Shown here: in pieces, positions 1,424 to 10,907 of the stretch
Layout of the letters: the number at the start of each line of letters is the position of its first letter
How positions within the stretch are numbered: position 1 is the stretch's first letter
NCBI GenBank assembly: GCA_000092065.1
Contig: CP000587.1
Source: Ostreococcus lucimarinus
Taxonomy: Eukaryota
Length of the DNA stretch: 64,000 nucleotides
Strand: one strand, 5' to 3'
Notes under the pieces: model-generated
Database searches by the model: none
Seen by the model: the letters and a program-made list of their open reading frames with translations, nothing else
What the model was told of the DNA's origin: nothing
Program-made: the position numbers and the translations under genes

Positions 1424-4400
1424 TCAAAGGCCGCCGGCGATGATTCTTGGTAGGATTGCGGTGGCGACACCGAGGGCGTAGTACGCCCAGACCGGAATGT
1501 CGCGCACGTCGACGACGGTGTCGCCCTTGGCGCGACCGTCCATCATGGCTTGCATCTTTTCGCCGTCGTCTGCGGCGGCGAGTTGCTTTTCGACCTTGCT
1601 GGAGATTTCGTCGATGGTAGACTCGTCGATCTCCATGGACGTGGCGTATCGGCGCTTGATGCGGTCCAAATCATCCGCAATCTTGCGCGATTCCTCGAGA
1701 ACCTTGCGTTCTTCGCCGTAAAGCGCCAAGAAATCGGCGAGCTTTTTCTCCGTGGCGCCCAACTTTTCGCGAACGATGATGAGTTGCTTTTCGTTAGTCT
1801 CGATTTGTGACTTGTACGTGGCCACGTCCTTGGTTTCGCTGCGAAGTCTCTGGATTTCCGCTTCGGCCACGTCCGCTCTCTTCTCGGCGCTAGAGACGTC
1901 AACAAGCGCTTGACGCGAGAGCTCGTCGATTTCGGATTCGTGCTTTTGCTGCATGGAGGCATACTTGGATTCGAAATCCGCCGTCAAGCGCGCGATCTCC
2001 GAAGCTCGTTGATTCTGTGCGTTTGCGAGCGCTTTGGTAAGGTCCGCCTGCAATTGAGCGAGCTCATCCTTGAGCTTTTGCATTTCAGCAGCCTTGGAAG
2101 CGTCGACGCTGGAGAGCTTATTTGCCAGCACAGACTTCTCCTCCGCGATGGCGGCGAGCGACTTCTCGAGCTCGGCGACGCGCGCTTGAGCAGCGTCCCT
2201 GGCGGTGGCGAGCGTTGCCAGCTCCTTGGGATCGACGGCGTTCTTCGTGAGAGTCGCGACTTCCTTCTCCAGTTCGCTCGCGCGAGCCAAGGCGGCGTCT
2301 CGAGCGCTGGCGAGCGTTGCCAGCTCCTTGGGATCGACGGCGTTCTTCGTGAGAGTCGCGACTTCCTTCTCCAGTTCGCTCGCGCGAGCCAAGGCGGCGT
2401 CTCGAGCGCTGGCGAGCGCTGCCAGCTCCTTGGGATCGACGGCGTTCTTCGTGAGAGTCGCGACTTCCTTCTCCAGTTCGCTCGCGCGAGCCAAGGCCGC
2501 GTCTCGCGCGTTCGTGAGAGAGGCCACTTCCTGCTCGAGCTTTTCGAGAGCTGCCTTGGCCGAAGCCGCGTCGTTGGAAGCGGACTTCGCGTCAGCGCTC
2601 GCCTTCGTCAGCGCAGCGTTAGTGTCTGCGATCGCCTTCTCGAGCTTGGCCTTTTCAGCTTCGAGCGCGGTCACCTTACCGGCGCTCGTCGTGTCGACCT
2701 TGGCCAATGCTTGCGAGAGCTCGGACTTGTGTTGCGCAACAATACTGCTCAACTCGTCGGCGTGAGCCTTCTTCAAATCTGCAGTCGCTTGTTTGACGAG
2801 CTTTTCGTATTCGGCGACCTCAGCTTCGAAGGCGGCACGAGCCTTGGCGGACTCATCCAAGAACATTTGCTCCAACTTCTTTCGTTGATCCTCGGCTTGG
2901 GCGATGACTTGACTTCGCGCTCGCTCGAGCGCCGTCTTCGAAGACGCTTCGAGTTCCGCACGCTGCGCTTCAGCATCCGTCAACGACTTGGCGAGTTTAT
3001 CCTTTTCGCTTTGAAGTTGCGCTTCGAGGGCGCTAATTTGCGCTTTGAGGTCCGACGCGTCGCTGGCATCCTTCAACGCCGCCACATGATCCTTGTTCAA
3101 TTTATCAATCTCCGCGGCGTGATCCTGTTGCAACTTGTTCAAAGTGGATTCATACGACGCCTTGGAGCTCGTCAACGAATTAGTGAGCTCGTCGACTTGT
3201 TGTTGCAACCCGGGGATGAGAGCCGCTTTGGTGAGAGCATCGGCGAGTTCTTTTTCAGCTTGTGCGGCGTTCTGCTTCTCGGCATCCGCGAGTTTCGCCT
3301 TGAGTGCGTCAATTTCTGCTTGCGCTTTCGTCAACTTGGCTCCGTACTCCGCTTCCACTTGTTCCTTCGCCTTTTGTAATGCGCTCTTTTGCTCAGTCTC
3401 GAGCTTGGAAATCTTCGAAAGCAAAACCGCATCGGCACTCTCTGCGGCTTCCTTTGCCGCGGTGAGATCTCTAGCGTTTTGAGCCTTGAGCGCGGCGACG
3501 TCCGCCTCGTATTGAGCCTTGGCGTCTGCGAGTGCTTTGCTAGCTGCCGCAACATCCGCATCGGTACGTTTGCGAAGCTCTTCGATTTGAGCGGCTAATT
3601 TGGCGTCAAGTTCAGCCTTTTGCTCCGCGAGTCGCGCTGAAATTTGGGCGTCAACATCGGCGAGCGATTGAACAGCTGAAGCCTTCGCCTTTTCGGCATC
3701 AGCCTTGGCCAAGGACAAATTCTGATCATGTTCTGCTTCAAGAGCGGCGATGCGAGCGCTGAGTGCGTCGCGCTCCGACGAGACAGCGGCCACGCCTTCC
3801 TTCGCTTGCGCATCGAACGCGCTTCTGAGCTCGTGCATCTCATCAGCGAAGTGCTTCTCCAACTCGGCAACCTTGTTTGCCGCCGCACTCTTCGCCTCAC
3901 TGAGCTGCGATTCCAATTCCTTGATTTCCTCTTCAGCCTCCTTGAGTTTGGCGTTGAGCGTCGCGATTTCGGCTTCAAATTGTGCCTTGGCATCGGTGCC
4001 CGCCGCGGCCGCCTTCAGTTCAAGAGCCTTAATTTCAGCCTCAAGCTTTTGAACCGTCGACTTGTACTCGCTCTCCGTCGAGCTAAACTTGGCTGTCAGG
4101 GCGTCGAGCTCCTTCTTGGCCGCACTCCCATCTTCAGCCTGGATAGCCGCGGCTTGGATCGCCTCGGCAGTGCGCGACTTTTCCGCCGCTAGTTGGCGCG
4201 CAGCGTCTTCACGCGCCGCAGCAAGTTGGTCTTCAAGGGATTTGGTCGTCTTAGCGAGGTCTGTCTCGAGTTGCGCCATCTTCGCCTTGATGGCTTCAGC
4301 TTGCGCAGCTTCGGCAGACTTCAGCTTGGACTGCGATTCAGCGATTGCCTTCGCGTGATCAGCGTTGATTCTTTCGATCTGCACCTTATGCGCGCGTTCG

Positions 4401-6766
4401 AGTTCATCCATCTTCGTCAACCACGTCTTCTCGACCTCAGCCTCTCGAGAAGCGAGAGCAGATTCAAGCGAAATCTGCGATTGCTTCTTCAATGCGTCGA
4501 TTTCGGCATCGTACGCTTGCGCCTTTTCCTTGGCAGCTTTCTCGGCGATCTCTAACGCATTGATTCTAGACTCGTACGACGAGACGAGCTTTTGCGTCTT
4601 TGAAGTTTCGGAATCAAAGAGCGCTTTCAAGGCGCGGCGTTCCGCCGCCATCGAGCGTGTAGCGTTCGCCAACTGCTTCTCAAGTTCGGCTTCGGCCGCG
4701 ACACGAGTAGCCTTGGCCGTGAACTCGAGTTGCGCCGCGAGTTCTTGCTTGGCGTCTTCCTTCAGCTGACGTACTTTGCTCTTGGTATCCTTTTCCATCT
4801 TTTCAACTTTGACGGCGTGCGCCGCGCCGAGGCGCTCCATCTTGCCTGACCAGAACAAGTTCAGCCTTTCTTCGGCACTTTCAATCTCCTTCTTCAAGTT
4901 GTCGCCCGTGAACATCTTCATTTTTTCGGATTCGGACTTGAGAAGATCGAACACCGCTCGTCGCTCATTCTTGGACATCTTGAGTTGCTTTTGAAGCTCC
5001 GCGATGGCGGCATCCTTTTCAGCCAACAGCTCCGCCGTCATTTCGAGCTCTTCTTCCTTCATCTCGGCGACGAGCTGCATCTTTTCAATCTCGTTGAGGT
5101 GAATTTGTTCAGCCACGGCATCGATAATTTCTTGCTTGGCGGCTACGAGATCTTGCGCAGCTCCTTCTTTGACTAGTTCGAGGCTCCTCGCGTGCGCGGT
5201 TTGCGCGGCGGCAGCGGCGCTCTCGTACGTCGCCTTGAGGACAGCCATCTCGGCGCGAATGGCTTCGACATCCTTGGCGCTCGCCGCCTTGGTTTGCTCG
5301 AGGCTGTCAGCGTGCGCCTTTTGGGCTGCATCAGCGGCACTTCGGTACGTCGCCTCTAAGGTCGCCTTTTCGGCCGCAAAGGCGCTCGCGCCGCGCTTCT
5401 CGGCTTCGGATTCGACTTGCTGCATCTTGGCCTGGTGCTCGCGCATGAGTTGCGCGATGGCTTCGGTATGCCTGGCGTCGAGATCGGCGAGCTTCTTCTT
5501 GGCGTCTTCATTTATTTTCATCTCCGCCTCAGTGATCGCCGCGCGCATCTCAACCTTCCAAGCCGCTTCCTTATCGTTCATGAGAAGCTCGAGCGCTTGA
5601 CGCTCCGCGAGAGCCTCGGCAATGGCGCGCTGCAACTCGCGTTCGGCTTCGAACTGCACTTCAGCCACGGCGGCGACGAGTTCGGCGGCGGATGTTTCTG
5701 CATTCGCAGCCGCCTCTTCGAGCTTGGAAATAAGCGATAACTTCTCGGCTTCAATGGCCGTGACCTTGGCGTGCCAGTCCGCGGCTTGCGCCTCCTTGAC
5801 GGAGATGGCTTTTTGAAGCTTGGAAACTTCAGAGTACATCATCGCTCTTTGGGCCTGGTACAACGCCTTGGCGGCGCGCACTTTGGACAATAGATCCTTA
5901 CGCTCGTCCGCAAATTTGCCTTCCATGCCCGCGACCTCAGTCTCGAGCTTCGAGATCGTTTCCTTGAGCAAAGCCGTGTCGCGCTCGTGCGCCTCGCGCA
6001 TGCGTCGCTTTTCGGCTTCAAACTGCGCCTTGGCTTGTTCGAGAGCCTTGGCCTTGTCGGCGGCGTGTGAGTTATTTTGATCGCGCAACTTTGTGATGTC
6101 CATCTGCAAACGGGCGATTTCACGCTTGTGGCGCTCCTCCACGCGCGACATTTCCATCGCAAACTGAGATTGCTTCTGCTCGAGCTCAGCCATCTCGGCT
6201 TCAAACTCGCGCATCATCACCTCGCGAAGCGCCTCGAGGCGTTCGAAAGACTTGGCCCCCCGAGCCATCGCCTGCGCGTGAACTTGCGCGTCGTACGATC
6301 CTTCAAACATGGACGAATCGGCGAGCGTGCGAACCAACCACGCGGCCGCGCACGTCGCCGCGCACGCCGCGCCCGCGCTGAGCACGCACGTCGCGCTCAC
6401 CTTGTACGCTTGGACGACGACGATGGACAACAGAGACCCGAACGCATACGTCACGCACATCGCCAACGCCCCCGGCGCGCTCGCCATCCCGCCAAATTTA
6501 CTCCACACGTACGCCGACACCAGCGTCGCGAGCGTCGCCGCGGACGCACGAATCGCGCTCGCCCCCGGCGTCGCCGCCCACGTCAATCCGCCCGCCGTCA
6601 CAAACGCGTAATCCGCCGCGCACACCGCCCCTACCACCGCTCCCGCCGTGAGCAGCGCCCGCATCGCGGGCGGCGTCGAATTCGGTCCATCATTCGACGA
6701 TCCCGACGGGACTCCCATCGTCGTCGTCGTCGTCGTCGTCGTCGTTTCGTTCGCCTCGTACGTCAT
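1424..6766 (-). CDS. giant membrane-anchored coiled-coil protein (~1780 aa) with internal 34-aa tandem repeats
   Basis: Track ORF 1424..7075(-). The first 103 codons are Arg/Ala-rich and probably 5' leader, so the likely ATG is at 6766 (MTYEANETTTTTTTTTMGVPS; alternative ATG at 6718). Downstream are several Ala-rich hydrophobic segments (putative TMs), then about 1,500 aa of heptad-rich E/K/A/L sequence, ending in a hydrophobic tail IPVWAYYALGVATAILPRIIAGGL. Three near-identical 34-aa repeats (ARDAALARASELEKEVATLTKNAVDPKELAxLAS) are encoded by a 102-bp tandem repeat. Confidence 0.65.
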   Translation of the reverse strand: MTYEANETTTTTTTTTMGVPSGSSNDGPNSTPPAMRALLTAGAVVGAVCAADYAFVTAGGLTWAATPGASAIRASAATLATLVSAYVWSKFGGMASAPGALAMCVTYAFGSLLSIVVVQAYKVSATCVLSAGAACAATCAAAWLVRTLADSSMFEGSYDAQVHAQAMARGAKSFERLEALREVMMREFEAEMAELEQKQSQFAMEMSRVEERHKREIARLQMDITKLRDQNNSHAADKAKALEQAKAQFEAEKRRMREAHERDTALLKETISKLETEVAGMEGKFADERKDLLSKVRAAKALYQAQRAMMYSEVSKLQKAISVKEAQAADWHAKVTAIEAEKLSLISKLEEAAANAETSAAELVAAVAEVQFEAERELQRAIAEALAERQALELLMNDKEAAWKVEMRAAITEAEMKINEDAKKKLADLDARHTEAIAQLMREHQAKMQQVESEAEKRGASAFAAEKATLEATYRSAADAAQKAHADSLEQTKAASAKDVEAIRAEMAVLKATYESAAAAAQTAHARSLELVKEGAAQDLVAAKQEIIDAVAEQIHLNEIEKMQLVAEMKEEELEMTAELLAEKDAAIAELQKQLKMSKNERRAVFDLLKSESEKMKMFTGDNLKKEIESAEERLNLFWSGKMERLGAAHAVKVEKMEKDTKSKVRQLKEDAKQELAAQLEFTAKATRVAAEAELEKQLANATRSMAAERRALKALFDSETSKTQKLVSSYESRINALEIAEKAAKEKAQAYDAEIDALKKQSQISLESALASREAEVEKTWLTKMDELERAHKVQIERINADHAKAIAESQSKLKSAEAAQAEAIKAKMAQLETDLAKTTKSLEDQLAAAREDAARQLAAEKSRTAEAIQAAAIQAEDGSAAKKELDALTAKFSSTESEYKSTVQKLEAEIKALELKAAAAGTDAKAQFEAEIATLNAKLKEAEEEIKELESQLSEAKSAAANKVAELEKHFADEMHELRSAFDAQAKEGVAAVSSERDALSARIAALEAEHDQNLSLAKADAEKAKASAVQSLADVDAQISARLAEQKAELDAKLAAQIEELRKRTDADVAAASKALADAKAQYEADVAALKAQNARDLTAAKEAAESADAVLLSKISKLETEQKSALQKAKEQVEAEYGAKLTKAQAEIDALKAKLADAEKQNAAQAEKELADALTKAALIPGLQQQVDELTNSLTSSKASYESTLNKLQQDHAAEIDKLNKDHVAALKDASDASDLKAQISALEAQLQSEKDKLAKSLTDAEAQRAELEASSKTALERARSQVIAQAEDQRKKLEQMFLDESAKARAAFEAEVAEYEKLVKQATADLKKAHADELSSIVAQHKSELSQALAKVDTTSAGKVTALEAEKAKLEKAIADTNAALTKASADAKSASNDAASAKAALEKLEQEVASLTNARDAALARASELEKEVATLTKNAVDPKELAALASARDAALARASELEKEVATLTKNAVDPKELATLASARDAALARASELEKEVATLTKNAVDPKELATLATARDAAQARVAELEKSLAAIAEEKSVLANKLSSVDASKAAEMQKLKDELAQLQADLTKALANAQNQRASEIARLTADFESKYASMQQKHESEIDELSRQALVDVSSAEKRADVAEAEIQRLRSETKDVATYKSQIETNEKQLIIVREKLGATEKKLADFLALYGEERKVLEESRKIADDLDRIKRRYATSMEIDESTIDEISSKVEKQLAAADDGEKMQAMMDGRAKGDTVVDVRDIPVWAYYALGVATAILPRIIAGGL
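2212..2517 (-). repeat. 3 x 102-bp near-perfect in-frame tandem repeat inside coiled-coil CDS
   Basis: The string gcgttgccagctccttgggatcgacggcgttcttcgtgagagtcgcgacttccttctccagttcgctcgcgcgagccaaggcggcgtctcgagcgctggcgagc recurs with starts at about 2212, 2314 and 2416 (period 102 bp), with one or two substitutions (T/A residue change). Confidence 0.9.
6721..6745. repeat. (GTC)8 microsatellite encoding the poly-Thr run of the coiled-coil protein N-terminus
   Basis: gtcgtcgtcgtcgtcgtcgtcgtcg seen directly. Confidence 0.9.
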
Positions 6767-7139
6767 CCGCAGCGACCCGTCGCTCGACGCGCGCGTCTCC
6801 GCGCGTCGCCCTCGCGTCGCGCCTCCCCTCGCCCATCCGCCCTCGCCCGGCCTCGCGCGCGCCGCGCCCGCGCGCGCATCGCTCCCGAATCCCATCCCGC
6901 GCGCCGTCGCGCCTCCTCGCACCACGCGCGCGCGCGTCGTCCGTCCCGGCGTCGCCTCGATCGGTGACGTCGCGCGCGTCGTCCGTCGTCCCGCGCGTCC
7001 CGCGCCTCGCACCGCATCGCTCGCCGCGCGCGCGCCCGCGAGCGCGCGCATCGACGTCACACCGCGCGTCGGCATCGTTCACGCGTCGCGCACTCGCGCG
7101 CGTCGACGCCGACGGTCGCCGCGCGCGCGCGATCGCGAT

Positions 7140-7330
7140 TGTCACCCATCGCGCCGCGCATCCAGCGTGGCCGCGGTCGGTCGCGGTCGGTCGATCGATC
7201 GCGCGCGATCGATCCGATCGATCGCGCGTCGATCGCGATCGCGATCGATCGATCGATCGCGCGATCGATCGCGCGCGATCCGATCGCGCGTCGCGCGCGA
7301 ACCCGCGAGAGATTTTTTCGATCGGTTTTA
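7140..7330. repeat. CGATCG/GATCG palindromic simple-repeat block in a divergent promoter region
   Basis: Dense reiteration of gatcgatcgcgcg, cgatcgcgatcgcgatcgatcgatcgatcgcgcgatcgatcgcgcgcgatccgatcgcgcg. It lies between the coiled-coil gene start (minus) and the candidate membrane-protein gene start at 7543 (plus). Confidence 0.8.
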
Positions 7331-7542
7331 TCGCGGCGATCGTCGACGATCGATGGCGATCTCGACGCGCGAAACGCGCGGTCGCGCGCGCCGGCGACCG
7401 ACCGTGCACGGTGGCGCGTGGCGCGTGGCGACGCGCCGAAAACCCGAAAATCCGGAGACGCGACGAGAGATCGCGGCGCGCGCGAGGGCGGCGACGCGAG
7501 ACGACCGACCGAACGACCGACCGAGAGAACGAAAAACGCGGG

Positions 7543-8347
7543 ATGGCGAGCCTGTTCGCGCGATGCACGCCGGGGACGTACGACGCGCTCGAAACGGCGG
7601 CGAAAGGGATGATGCACGCGCAGCTCGCGTGCGCGCTGCTCGGGACGTGCGGGTGGCAAGGGACGGGCTACCTCGCGGGAGTGGCGGCGATGTCGTGCTT
7701 CGGGTTGGTGGCCATCGAAACCGGCAAGAGTGGGCTGCTGAAGGTGCGCGAACGGCGAGGCGAACGGCGAAGCGGGTTTGAACTGAATTGACGCCGCGAG
7801 GCGACGCGACGCGACGCGAACGGGAGACTGACGGCGGCGGATTTCGACGCGCGACGCGCAGTACACGGCGGCGAGCTGCTGGTACACGCTCTGGCTCGAC
7901 ATCATATGGATGGCGTCGTACGCGACGGATAACATCAACAAAAACAACAACTGGAACTCTGGACATAGGCGAGGGAACGAGCTTTGCGTCGGGATGGTCG
8001 TGTTGATTTTCATGCTCAGGTTCCCGCAGTTTTTCGTGTGGCAAAAGCTGTGGCACTTAGGATTCAAGGCGAGTGGCGGTGCCGGGGCTCAACCCTCGAG
8101 ATACGTCGACTTCGCCACGAACCCGGTGGCGCGAGGTCAAGAGATGGGTTCGCCGAGGCCTCAAGGCGACGCGTTCGCGCAACCGCCTCGAGCGACGACA
8201 GCGACGCCGTCGTCCGCCCTCGCGACGGCCCCGGTGTCGCCCTCGCCCGCGCCGCCCGCCCCCGTGGTGAGCGCGCCTTCACCGCCGGCCCCAATCTCCG
8301 CCCCGGCCGTCGTCTCGTTCACTCCGAGTGGACCTGGCAACGTGTAG
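7543..8347 (+). CDS. candidate two-exon gene for a small multi-pass membrane protein (not in ORF track as a unit)
   Basis: Exon 1 is 7543..7743 (MASLFARCTPGTYDALETAAKGMMHAQLACALLGTCGWQGTGYLAGVAAMSCFGLVAIETGKSGLLK), followed by donor AAG|GTGCGCG. The proposed intron is 7744..7861, ending CGCAG. Exon 2 is 7862..8347 (YTAASCWYTLWLDIIWMASYATDNINKNNNWNSGHRRGNELCVGMVVLIFMLRFPQFFVWQKLWHLGFK..., stop 8345-8347). Three hydrophobic helices; the Pro/Ala-rich tail may be partly 3' sequence. This is a model inferred from frame continuity and splice-site resemblance to the other introns in this window. Confidence 0.35.
7744..7861 (+). other. putative intron (GTGCGCG...CGCAG) of the candidate membrane-protein gene
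   Basis: See the 7543..8347 feature. The donor matches the GTGCG-type donors of the five introns supported by protein homology. Confidence 0.3.
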
Positions 8348-9377
8348 GCGACGAGACGTGCCACGCTTACCCACGCGTGTGCGTGAGTATAATCATCCCG
8401 TTTGTGATAATCCAACGGAATAATACAATATATTTTCGAGCGAACGATTCTCTGATCCCGCGTCTGCGTTGCGCCATAAATTGGTTCGCTATAAATTGGT
8501 CTAATTACAATCACGTTTCGTCAAAACGTTCCGCGTCGCCGGCGCTCAACCGCCGCAGTTCAATTCTTCGTCTTCCGCGGTCGGATTCTACGCCGTGGTC
8601 TCTTTAGGTCTGCGATAAAGCATGATGTGCGGCTCCGGGCGATGGCTGCGCACGCGCGGTGTAAAACAAAGTCAGTCGGCGTCGCGCGTCGCGTCCGCGG
8701 CGCCGGCCTCGCGCGTCGAATCGAAACGACAGCCATCGCTCAAACGCATCCAAAATCACCCGCGCGCGCACTCGATACGTACATCGCGTAGTGTACCCAA
8801 CCTCGGGATTGTTGCACGCCCAATCCGCGCCATTCGGTCTGCGCGCGCGTCTTCGTCAGTCCTCCTTCGTCTCGCGGGGGAAAGAATCCCTCCTTCGCGC
8901 GCGCGTCGTCGACCCGTCGCGTCCTCCCCCGTCTCCATCCCTCGCGCGCACCTCGGTCAACAACCGATTCTTCGGCAACAACTTCGCGATATCCGGCGGC
9001 AACACCACGTGTCTGCGGTCGCGCGCGCGCGCCGTCGTCTCGTCAGTCTCGCAACGTTCGTTTCGTCGCGTCTCGTTTCGATCGTTTCCCGCGTCGCCCG
9101 TCGTCGTCGTCGCCGTCGCGCGCGGCGCCGCACCTGTACTCGTACACGTCGTCGTAGTATTTTTCGCTGTACTGAATCTGCGGCATCGCGCGCGCGGCGT
9201 TCGATCGCGCGGGTCGGTGTGCGGGACGTCCGACAGCTCGCTTTGAATTTTCCTTTCCGCCGCTCCGCTTCCGGGTGTGCGACATGGTCGACGTCGGCGC
9301 GTCGTGGTGCCCGGTTTCGTCGCCGCGAACGAGGCACCACCGCGCGACCGGCGTCGCCGGCACTCGCCCGCGCGACG

Positions 9378-10907
9378 ATGGCGACGGCGTCGACGACGCG
9401 GACGCGCGCGACGCGGCGCGCGCCCTGGACGACGACGCTCGCGTGCGTCGCGGTCGCGGTCGCGCGCGCGGCGCGCGCGCGAGCGGCGACGGGACGATCG
9501 CTGGCGATCGCGATGCGACGGCGGACGACGACCGCGACGGCGGGACGGCGACTGTCGCGGGCGGACGCGATCGAGATTCGGTCGTACGGCGCGCGCCTGG
9601 GGAATGGATACGGCTCCGGGCACGAGTTTTCGCTGACGGTGACGCTGCCGGGCGCGCAAAGTTTTGACCTCATCGTCGACACCGGGTCGCCGCTCACGTA
9701 TTTTCCGTGCGTCGGGTGCGACGCGGAGTTGTGCGGGTATCACGAGCATCAATACTACGATTGGCGGTTGTCGAACGATTTTCGGCTGTTGAACGCGTCG
9801 ATGAACGCCGCGGATGCCGCGTTTTGCGACGCGATGCCCGTCGCGCACAACGTCAGCGCCGACGGCGAGTGTTTATTCGGGCTGGGGTACCTGGACGGTG
9901 CGCGAGGAGGCGGGTCCATGATCGAAGATGTGGTCAGCGTCGGGGATGAATTGTCCCCGGCCAAGATGATTTTCGGGTGCGGTGGTGTCGTAGAAGCTGA
10001 TGGGGGGTTTGATCGACAAGACGGCATGGCTGGTTTCAGTCGAGGTAACACCGCGTTTCACACGCAGTTGGCGAAAGCCGGAGTTATCAACGCGCACGTT
10101 TTTGGATTCTGTTCAGAGGGAAGCGGCACGGATACGGCGATGTTATCGCTCGGTCGGTATGATTTCGGTCGAGATCTTGCGCCTCTATCGTATACACGGA
10201 TACTTGGGGCTGATGATCTCGCCGTTCGCACGATGTCGTGGAAACTCGGCGAAGCCATCATCGCGAGCTCGTCGAACGTCTACACCGTTCTTGATAGCGG
10301 CACCACGCTTGTTCTTCTACCCCCCGCTATGCGAGATGATTTTATCACAAAGTTAGTGGCACAAATGGCGGCTACCCATCCAGAACTTGAACTTTTTGAC
10401 GACGAAGATTTGGGGCAAATGTGTTTCTCCTCTGCCACGCCGGTGCTGACGGCGAAGCTTCGCGACGAGTGGTTTCCAAAACTAGCCATCACGTACGACC
10501 CAGATATCACGTTGATCCTTCCATCAGAGAACTACTTGAACAGTCATTTATACATACCACACACTTACTGCTTGGGAATCGACGAATCAGATGACGGGAC
10601 GATTTTACTCGGCCAACAAGCGCTGAGAAACACGTTCATTGAATACGACCTTGAGAATGATCGCGTCGGTGTGGTCGTCGCGCAGTGCGAAAATCTCCGG
10701 AAGAAGTTCGCGCCTGATACTCCTCATAATCCATGGAGGTTTGTCGCCACCATTTTCATCTTGTTATTCACGGCATGCGTTGTTAGCGCGGTGTCGTTCT
10801 GTTTGTACGCCAAGTTTGGGGGGCAAAAGCCGTTCAAGTACCGAGTGTTCCAAGTCTCCGATATACTCGATGAAGAGATAGAGATGGGTAACGTAGTGGA
10901 CACGTAA
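9378..10907 (+). CDS. pepsin-like (A1 family) aspartic peptidase with signal peptide and C-terminal transmembrane anchor
   Basis: Track ORF 8622..10907, but its first 252 codons are Arg-rich artefact. The first plausible ATG is at 9378 (MATASTTRTRATRRAPWTTTLACVAVAVARAARA, signal-like). The two catalytic motifs are LIVDTGSPLTYF and TVLDSGTTLVLLP. A C-terminal hydrophobic segment FVATIFILLFTACVVSAVSFCLY precedes a short basic tail. Confidence 0.8.
   Translation: MATASTTRTRATRRAPWTTTLACVAVAVARAARARAATGRSLAIAMRRRTTTATAGRRLSRADAIEIRSYGARLGNGYGSGHEFSLTVTLPGAQSFDLIVDTGSPLTYFPCVGCDAELCGYHEHQYYDWRLSNDFRLLNASMNAADAAFCDAMPVAHNVSADGECLFGLGYLDGARGGGSMIEDVVSVGDELSPAKMIFGCGGVVEADGGFDRQDGMAGFSRGNTAFHTQLAKAGVINAHVFGFCSEGSGTDTAMLSLGRYDFGRDLAPLSYTRILGADDLAVRTMSWKLGEAIIASSSNVYTVLDSGTTLVLLPPAMRDDFITKLVAQMAATHPELELFDDEDLGQMCFSSATPVLTAKLRDEWFPKLAITYDPDITLILPSENYLNSHLYIPHTYCLGIDESDDGTILLGQQALRNTFIEYDLENDRVGVVVAQCENLRKKFAPDTPHNPWRFVATIFILLFTACVVSAVSFCLYAKFGGQKPFKYRVFQVSDILDEEIEMGNVVDT

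Follow-up and report, generated by a model that had tools for sequence, protein, structure and literature searches.

Among the described proteins closest in design to the one considered here are some from bacteria and from chloroplasts. The bacterial protein Scy has a rod exceeding 1,000 residues that consists of hendecads almost throughout (PMC9858780). The thylakoid coiled-coil protein MFP1 carries a presequence, a Tat signal, one short transmembrane segment, and a C-terminal coiled coil, with no C-terminal anchor mentioned in its description (PMC10801857), and MITH1 of the Chlamydomonas pyrenoid is membrane-bound via an amphipathic helix and binds Rubisco along its rod (bioRxiv 10.64898/2026.06.09.731149). 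We describe here a gene of Ostreococcus lucimarinus, located on the minus strand of a 64,000-nucleotide stretch of contig CP000587.1 (assembly GCA_000092065.1; the whole stretch is referred to as the window), whose predicted product, the rod protein, is a giant alpha-helical rod with hydrophobic segments towards both ends. The architecture, the hendecad periodicity extending over about 1,500 residues, and the nearly invariant C-terminal tail are unusual.

Periodicity and architecture of the rod protein

We measured the periodicity of the rod as the autocorrelation of large hydrophobic residues along its length, together with an averaged (Welch) periodogram, the standard deviation among shuffles being ~0.026. 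The window protein and P0022, a full-length orthologue, behave similarly: at lags 7, 11, 18, 22, and 29 the autocorrelation is 0.17, 0.23, 0.16, 0.15, and 0.16 in the former and 0.15, 0.28, 0.17, 0.18, and 0.18 in the latter, and at lags 21 and 28 it falls to 0.03 and -0.03 in the window protein and to -0.06 and -0.07 in P0022. The peaks stand at lags 11, 18, 22, 29, and 40 and not at 14, 21, and 28, and the Welch spectrum has its maximum at 3.62 residues in the window protein and at 3.66 in P0022, compared with 3.50 in a tropomyosin control with lags of 7, 14, 21, and 28. Neither rod has the period of 3.5 and the lags of 7, 14, 21, and 28 that characterize a canonical heptad coiled coil, and both have the period of ~3.64–3.67 over long helical stretches that is typical of hendecads, even though the two proteins are just 28% identical. 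The rod is hendecad-type (11/3), not heptad, in its periodicity. An initial annotation of the window had reported about 1,780 codons of heptad-like sequence; the giant alpha-helical rod is borne out, but 1,780 codons was the entire protein as then delimited, the helical region comprises ~1,590 residues, and the heptad assignment has to be withdrawn.

The helical region contains only four prolines and about 20 glycines, and AlphaFold2, run on the monomer, returns continuous helices at both ends of the rod with a predicted local distance difference test score (pLDDT) of ~90. Among the full-length orthologues, the part between the fourth hydrophobic helix and the tail holds one to seven prolines over 1,425–1,729 residues. 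The calculated length of the rod is about 214–259 nm at 0.15 nm per residue (~240 nm for a double-anchored rod), and because the periodicity is near 3.64 there should be almost no supercoiling. The hydrophobic stripe is narrow, with L, I, F, and Y lying within 50 degrees of it in 61–91% of cases; E, K, and Q flank the stripe, and A, S, D, and G occupy the opposite face, 62% of the alanines being more than 100 degrees away. Large hydrophobic residues make up only about 20% of the rod, and the protein overall is 21.9% A, 11.5% E, 9.3% L, and 9.2% K. A single-alpha-helix (ER/K) domain was considered and set aside, because the composition does not fit (E 11.5%, K 9%, A 22%) and the hydrophobic stripe is clear. 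Histidine is found on the stripe in 71–76% of cases in both of the 28%-identical orthologues, for example at His536, His628, His753, and His1712 (codons of the open reading frame, ORF), often as H-x3-[ILM] and sometimes in pairs 11 residues apart. Of the 21 rod histidines, four do not vary across five orthologues and others are exchanged for Y, F, or W, a pattern that could mean that the seam is sensitive to pH or to metals.

Ahead of the rod, the first 60 residues of the window protein contain 22% Arg, no Lys, and 3% Asp+Glu. Across the window protein and three orthologues (L010, L013, and P0042) the corresponding ranges are Arg 12–22%, Lys 0–2%, Asp+Glu 2–5%, Ser+Thr 15–23%, and Ala 17–23%, compared with 5% Arg, 11% Lys, and 19% Asp+Glu in the rod. 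The sequence of this extension is not conserved (~14% identity to two distant orthologues), yet every full-length orthologue has a basic, acid-poor stretch of 100–150 residues in front of the first hydrophobic helix, and the GC content at third codon positions of 0.83–0.86 continues from the hydrophobic region into it. The first ~100 residues thus resemble an organellar presequence, and because the composition is kept while the sequence diverges, we infer an organellar targeting peptide that would deliver the protein to the plastid or the mitochondrion. In the linker that follows, the threonine tract (codons 111–119) is encoded by an (ACG)9 microsatellite at 6718–6745, directly before the hydrophobic region. 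The tract is T9 or T10 between strains of this species (T10 in L003 and P0008), and in the sister species, represented by L009, the segment is Ser/Thr-rich but different. The microsatellite is a second small length-variable site within the gene, beside the tandem repeat considered below.

The alanine-rich hydrophobic helices that the initial annotation placed near the N-terminus are recovered by Kyte-Doolittle hydropathy, by AlphaFold2, which predicts four of them, and by conservation among orthologues. Their Kyte-Doolittle peaks are 1.8–2.2, with helix 2 ranging from 1.1 to 1.6 across orthologues, and the region includes the motif LTYAFGSLLSIVVVQAxK(T/V)S. All four helices are kept in orthologues at 25–63% identity and constitute a putative membrane anchor.

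At the other end of the protein, AlphaFold2 models the conserved C-terminal domain as a helix, a break, and a second helix followed by a disordered linker, and a Foldseek search of the PDB with this model gave no matches. The hydrophobic tail noted initially is present as IPVWAYYALGVATAILPRIIAGGL (also given as IPVWAYYALGVATAILPRIIAGG), and is the most conserved segment of the protein, with 56% identity to two distant orthologues and 73% over all, against about 30% in the rod; all orthologues conform to the consensus [IV]P.W[AG]YYA[LV]G..A..LLPR[IL][IF].GG. No more than seven residues follow its hydrophobic core, the protein ends in AGGL or GGGM, and there is one Arg near the end. With four further hydrophobic helices near the N-terminus, the protein does not belong to the classical tail-anchored class, in which the sole transmembrane segment is at the C-terminus. 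Both the N-terminal helices and the tail are putative membrane segments.

Table 1. Features of the rod gene and its predicted product, with positions in the window
Feature	Position	Strand	Basis or remarks
Complete coding sequence, 1,883 codons plus TGA stop (1424-1426)	1424..7075	minus	Uninterrupted ORF; no frame-breaking indels between strains
Presequence-like N-terminal extension, residues 1-103	6767..7075	minus	Composition; no indels relative to L003
Polar linker, residues 104-135, with [LY]R.TY[ED] motif and Thr9 tract	6671..6766	minus	Orthologue alignment, tandem repeat scan
Four weakly to moderately hydrophobic helices, residues 136-160, 170-194, 201-224, and 228-252	6320..6670	minus	Kyte-Doolittle, AlphaFold2, orthologue conservation
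Predicted alpha-helical rod, residues 263-1849, periodicity 3.62-3.66	1529..6289	minus	Hydrophobic periodicity, AlphaFold2
N-proximal half of rod, residues 256-900, best-conserved part of rod, with SFERLEALREVMMREF motif	4376..6310	minus	Near gap-free alignment to orthologues 28-38% identical
Older diverged tandem duplication, ~38 residues, ...ATLEATYRSAADAAQKAHADSLE / ...AVLKATYESAAAAAQTAHARSLE	5177..5371	minus	One copy missing in L012 and L013
Three 34-residue units, ARDAALARASELEKEVATLTKNAVDPKELAxLAx, at 2408-2509, 2306-2407, and 2204-2305	2204..2509	minus	Tandem Repeats Finder, reading-frame phase
Diverged partial fourth unit, ARDAAQARVAELEKSL	2156..2203	minus	Flanks the array; kept in sister species
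Conserved C-terminal domain, residues 1763-1859 (LADFLALYGEERKVLEESRKIADDLDRIKRRYA...), then flexible linker	1499..1789	minus	Orthologue alignments; dN/dS 0.08
C-terminal hydrophobic tail, IPVWAYYALGVATAILPRIIAGGL	1427..1498	minus	Consensus across all orthologues

A proposed structural role at membranes and its alternatives

We propose, with somewhat less than even confidence, that the rod protein is an organelle-associated, membrane-anchored structural element, acting as a tether, a spacer, or part of a membrane skeleton. The presequence would deliver the protein to the plastid or mitochondrion, where the four-helix bundle would fix one end in a membrane, the even number of helices leaving the rod on the side of the membrane where the N-terminus lies. 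The rod would associate with at least one further copy, parallel and in register, giving a nearly straight, non-supercoiled coiled coil of about 215–260 nm, and the invariant tail would secure the distal end to a membrane or to a specific membrane partner. Such a molecule would act structurally, and would be neither an enzyme nor a vesicle-capturing golgin. Parallel, in-register pairing is favored because it tolerates indels and repeats in the C-proximal half of the rod, which is rich in both, whereas the N-proximal half is gap-free. An antiparallel, SMC-like hairpin, which would bring the two ends to one patch of membrane, was also considered but is disfavored, as indels in one half only would break the register.

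Several observations weigh against this proposal. Organellar targeting is read solely from the composition and position of the presequence, and the dN/dS (ratio of nonsynonymous to synonymous substitution rates) of ~1 in the presequence region fits a transit peptide but equally fits weak constraint. The AlphaFold2 pLDDT is below 50 over the four-helix region, so that helices are predicted but their packing is not given, and the hydropathy of the tail, at 1.4, lies under the classical transmembrane threshold of 1.6. The alanines lie opposite the stripe, unlike in the dimeric hendecad rods of Scy and FilP.

Another reading is cytosolic and close to the golgin or nesprin logic of the initial annotation. 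Here the protein would connect organelles or endomembranes, with the N-terminal anchor in one organelle membrane, the rod in the cytosol, and the tail inserted post-translationally in another membrane. The tail does resemble a short, moderately hydrophobic tail anchor near the C-terminus with one Arg near its end, and with four helices the rod would emerge on the N-terminal side of the membrane; moreover, Mamiellales cells have one plastid and one mitochondrion, which need positioning. We nonetheless think this arrangement unlikely. Pfam scans gave a single golgin-type match, to Golgin_A5 in one fragment (E=0.098, 12.6 bits against a cutoff of 31.7 bits), and no match to GRIP or CASP at threshold. 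KASH likewise had no Pfam match, and with no more than seven residues beyond the hydrophobic core, the C-terminus (...LPRIIAGGL) leaves no room for a KASH-type lumenal peptide of about 9–30 residues with a PPPX- or VIPT-like end. A basic presequence of 100–150 residues would be unusual for a signal-anchored protein of the outer membrane or endoplasmic reticulum, and the periodicity is not the heptad usual in golgins. These same points bear on the golgin- or nesprin-like logic proposed in the initial annotation, which does not hold up on the features that define those families: the protein has no golgin, GRIP, or KASH domain, its period is hendecad, and the presequence, which is found in all full-length orthologues, points to an organelle rather than to the Golgi or the nuclear envelope. 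What survives of that suggestion is a long rod with hydrophobic segments at both ends as a possible membrane tether, with an organellar setting preferred.

It is less probable still that the protein is a very long amphipathic helix lying on a membrane surface, similar to the 11-mer helices of perilipins, apolipoproteins, synuclein, or LEA proteins, and coating a membrane, a lipid body, or a starch body between its two anchors. A period of ~3.64 is exactly that of 11-mer lipid-binding helices, and the composition rich in Ala, Glu, and Lys, with His and aromatic residues in the stripe, would be suitable. However, the narrow stripe, the ~20% of large hydrophobic residues, and the alanines opposite look more like the seam of a coiled coil than like the broad apolar side of such helices; LEA_4, perilipin, and apolipoprotein gave no Pfam match at reporting E-values of 0.01 to 1; and the N-proximal rod is conserved in specific sequence without gaps, unlike degenerate 11-mer arrays. 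Finally, comparison with relatives refutes the possibility that the ORF does not code for protein, or is an antisense artifact of GC-rich DNA, in which long spurious ORFs arise on both strands (e.g. 1910–3379 on the plus strand and 7057–8067 on the minus strand): dN/dS in this frame is 0.16 against L009, the architecture is kept in orthologues at 28–58% identity, and the ORF is intact across assemblies of strains and species whereas the upstream ORF at 7057–8067 is broken by indels.

Returning to the organellar structural element, a more specific form of it is that the protein builds a membrane skeleton or 'ruler' inside or on the surface of an organelle and is specific to the smallest free-living eukaryotes. 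The ~240-nm hendecad rod would be held in a membrane at one end by its four-helix bundle, and its tail might dock into the bundle of the next molecule, forming head-to-tail polymers that could set the geometry or segregation of the plastid or mitochondrion. We regard this version as doubtful, but if true it would constitute an independently arisen eukaryotic organellar counterpart of Scy and FilP, and the histidines of the seam might confer pH or metal sensitivity on it.

Gene, family, and tandem repeats

On the strength of the dN/dS of 0.16 and of orthologues with a kept architecture, the minus-strand ORF at 1424–7075 is a real, conserved nuclear gene. Its dS relative to L009 is ~1.5, and dN/dS by region is 0.11 in the N-proximal rod, 0.15 in the C-proximal rod, 0.08 at the C-terminus, and 0.27 in the hydrophobic region. 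The intact ORF is present in short-read assemblies from several strains and species. Strains of the same species are 98–99.8% identical, frame-breaking indels are confined to positions upstream of 7138, and relative to strain L003 the only length changes within the ORF are the 3 bp of the threonine tract and a 204-bp repeat difference. The earliest ATG, at 7075, lies two codons downstream of a stop, and a second (M9) is at 7051. The initial annotation began the protein at 6766, which is Met104 of the present frame, but the ORF is open to 7075 and this methionine is replaced by Leu in L009 and by Phe in L010 and P0016. The position thus varies within the otherwise conserved [LY]R.TY[ED] motif, and translation must start upstream, at 7075 or 7051. 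Upstream of the gene, the intergenic region at 7138–7450 is a TCGA/CGAT-rich low-complexity block in which Tandem Repeats Finder (TRF) reports periods of 4, 20, 23, 47, and 58 at 7177–7300, and the indels between strains (1, 2, 8, 10, and 38 bp) are located there. The minus-strand ORF of 336 codons at 7057–8067, annotated by metagenome gene callers, was rejected as non-coding, its frame being broken by these indels.

The N-terminal 1,200 residues were compared using HMMER with 1.84 billion representative proteins, which yielded 24 proteins, all of them eukaryote-like orthologues; a word-index search with the whole protein returned nothing outside its 90% cluster, whose 16 members are all of the same species. 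The more distant relatives include two N-terminal fragments, P0016 (54–58% identical to the window protein) and P0020 (32–37%), a C-terminal part, P0021 (38%), and the full-length, 1,667-residue P0022, which is 28% identical over residues 124–1111 and 40% over the last 93. Complete genes representing three or more additional lineages (L009 to L014) came from a scan of Joint Genome Institute (JGI) metagenome contigs. The contigs that carry orthologues have GC contents of 57%, 61%, 64–66%, and 69–71%, and include a Tara Oceans contig (64%) and the 2.06-Mb contig L006 (69–71%); judging from GC content, marine sources, and green-lineage neighbors, we infer that the picoeukaryotes concerned are Mamiellales. 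The full-length orthologues P0022, L010, L012, and L013 share all of the modules, namely presequence, four helices, rod, C-terminal domain, and tail. Two C-terminal orthologue fragments, P0060 (source label 'merc') and P0055 ('lgn'), come from collections other than genome or metagenome assemblies, and P0060 matches the L009 species. Should 'merc' denote a catalogue derived from transcriptomes, P0060 would be evidence that the family is expressed. No member with a name or sourced from NCBI or UniRef surfaced, but the word-index searches are lossy and profile searches failed to return some members of the alignments they were built from, so this is not evidence that reference genomes lack the gene. 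Taken together, the comparisons indicate a small, undescribed, lineage-restricted family of fixed architecture.

Conservation is uneven along the protein, as judged by identity to two distant orthologues by region. Residues 150–900 are ~30–38% identical and align almost without gaps, the exception being a duplication of ~38 residues near residues 551–600, and residues 900–1750 have lower identity and many indels, with the repeat region lowest of all. The N-proximal 650 residues of the rod probably carry specific binding sites.

The 34-residue triplication is located in the least conserved, indel-tolerant part of the rod. TRF reports a period of 102 bp with 3.0 copies, 98% matches, and a score of 590 at 2202–2510, in-frame. 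The initial annotation had called the array perfect; there are indeed three in-frame units, but they are near-perfect, with pairwise differences at one to four of 102 nucleotides, units 2 and 3 differing at one. Each unit holds one of the rod's four prolines and would thus add a helical segment of ~30 residues and a break, or about 5 nm. The sister species L009 has a single diverged unit, SRDAAVAKISDLEKQLLDAKQSSVDPKEVATLKT, at this position, from which it follows that the triplication arose after the two species separated, and in L002 the units carry private substitutions, so homogenization must be incomplete. The earlier suggestion that the array is recent or homogenized can therefore be retained in its first part, and in its second only with that qualification.

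Copy number was compared across the window and 11 assemblies, 12 sequences of the species in all. Three units are present in the window, in five long-contig assemblies (L002, L016, L017, L018, and L019), and in the short-read JGI contig L008; the JGI contig L007 has two units; and L001 (an NCBI metagenome-type contig) and the MEGAHIT k141 contigs L003 and L004 have one. The five long-contig assemblies have scattered single-base indels and near-consecutive ENA accessions and probably derive from one project, so they are not independent, but all have three units, and three copies are not the collapse of a larger array. The length polymorphism anticipated in the initial annotation is thus seen in the form of one, two, and three copies, with the reservation that the shorter forms occur only in short-read de Bruijn assemblies with collapse-type junctions.

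We lean slightly towards the view that the array is fixed at three units in the species and that the one- and two-copy versions are collapses in short-read assembly. Besides the agreement among the long-contig assemblies, the window, and the short-read contig L008, the one-copy forms (L001, L003, and L004) begin as unit 1 and end as unit 3, and in the two-copy L007 unit 1 is succeeded by a unit that matches unit 3 exactly, a copy of the unit 2 type being absent; L003 and L004 are moreover MEGAHIT contigs with k141 names. Against this, unequal crossing-over is expected to leave the same junctions, the long-contig assemblies probably do not amount to separate samples, the units share no 140-mer and could in principle be resolved by a k=141 graph, and the unit-specific substitutions in L002 show an array evolving within the population. 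A real copy-number polymorphism in this species has, in our estimation, nearly an even chance, and if copy number does vary, the repeat could be used as a simple strain marker.

Whatever its state within the species, the array is one of several. The two copies of the older ~38-residue duplication are much more alike in P0016 and L010 than in the window protein, which suggests repeated duplication or gene conversion. Three orthologues carry tandem repeats of their own at different positions in the rod: L009 has an in-frame repeat of 33 bp x 3.1 (gene nucleotides 1505–1606), L010 an in-frame repeat of 192 bp x 2.8 (gene nucleotides 4964–5492), and P0021 a repeat of about 87 residues x 3 (residues ~30–290). 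Because these repeats lie elsewhere, the rod appears to have grown repeatedly by tandem duplication, and stepwise duplication is, on this comparison, the usual route by which its length changes; with the triplication, they indicate changes in rod length in steps of ~5 nm.

The surrounding window is compact, about 60% GC, and eukaryotic. Neighbors of the rod gene encode an alanyl-tRNA synthetase (AlaRS), a TAXi-type aspartyl protease, an alpha-amylase with Alpha-amyl_C2, an RNase E/G with a CBM20 domain, and a ClpB-type ATPase, and the gene directly downstream, at 3–1262 on the minus strand and cut by the window edge, encodes a PCIF1_WW domain (Pfam E=6.6e-56). These neighbors argue for a green-lineage origin. 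The order AlaRS, aspartyl protease, rod gene, PCIF1_WW recurs in other assemblies of this species, and AlaRS and PCIF1_WW are also near the orthologue on L006. A plus-strand ORF of 410 codons at 211–1443 is antisense to the PCIF1_WW gene and was not accepted as a gene. The aspartyl protease ORF (8622–10907, plus strand) has 761 codons here, compared with 509 residues given by gene callers on other assemblies, and the ~1.5 kb separating it from the divergent rod gene seems long for a compact genome; part of it could represent a 5' extension or a small gene that lacks annotation.

Comparison with known rod proteins

Cells of the Ostreococcus and Micromonas type fit a single plastid and a single mitochondrion into about 1 µm, and to our knowledge very few structural proteins are known that shape, space, or partition these organelles. 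The rod family offers a concrete and taggable candidate, being conserved, lineage-restricted, hydrophobic at its ends, and, at a calculated ~240 nm, long enough to span a sizeable fraction of the cell. It would also be among the few long eukaryotic rods with hendecad rather than heptad periodicity, and hence useful for the structural biology of coiled coils.

The protein could not be placed in any known family, in agreement with the initial annotation: in Pfam, neither the whole protein, nor its two ends, nor the orthologues had anything but generic coiled-coil matches below threshold, NCBIfam had no match above its cutoffs, PDB sequence searches using profiles of the two termini yielded nothing beyond generic coiled coils, and the Foldseek search was negative. 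Its general plan is nonetheless recognizable. The transmembrane golgins (giantin, golgin-84, and CASP) are, like the rod protein, giant coiled coils ending in a C-terminal hydrophobic segment, and the same rod-plus-tail plan is reported for PICC and PICL, plant tail-anchored long coiled coils (PMC3581476). The golgins, PICC, and PICL are, however, cytosolic and have no N-terminal membrane domain or presequence, whereas the rod protein has four helices and a presequence. KASH proteins (the nesprins, and WIP and SINE in plants) similarly combine a long rod with a C-terminal membrane segment, which is used for organelle positioning; the rod protein differs in having no lumenal KASH peptide, in the absence of any spectrin or CH domain among those found, and in its presequence.

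MFP1 is about 700 residues long. Its logic is the same: behind a plastid presequence, a membrane anchor near the N-terminus holds a long coiled coil that stands out from the membrane and organizes other components (PMC10801857). With its four helices, its far longer rod, and the invariant tail at its C-terminus, the rod protein departs from MFP1 as described. MITH1 is likewise an extended chloroplast coiled coil that is membrane-bound at its N-terminus and organizes space beside thylakoid membranes; in place of the amphipathic helix the rod protein has helices of the integral type, and it has a second anchor.

In periodicity the nearest counterparts are Scy and FilP, the best-described long rods of the hendecad type and actinobacterial cytoskeletal coiled coils that, as here, have a period of ~3.64–3.67, are rich in alanine, are presumed to be near-straight rods, and have a structural role (PMC9858780). 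They differ in that their core is filled by alanine, which in the rod protein lies opposite the stripe, and the rod protein is eukaryotic, nuclear-encoded, and hydrophobic at both ends, with no sequence relationship to them and no DivIVA-like N-terminal motif in Pfam scans. Lacking one or another defining feature of each family compared, and yet sharing with them a long rod and its presumed attachment to membranes, the rod protein is best regarded as a lineage-restricted variant among membrane-anchored rod proteins.

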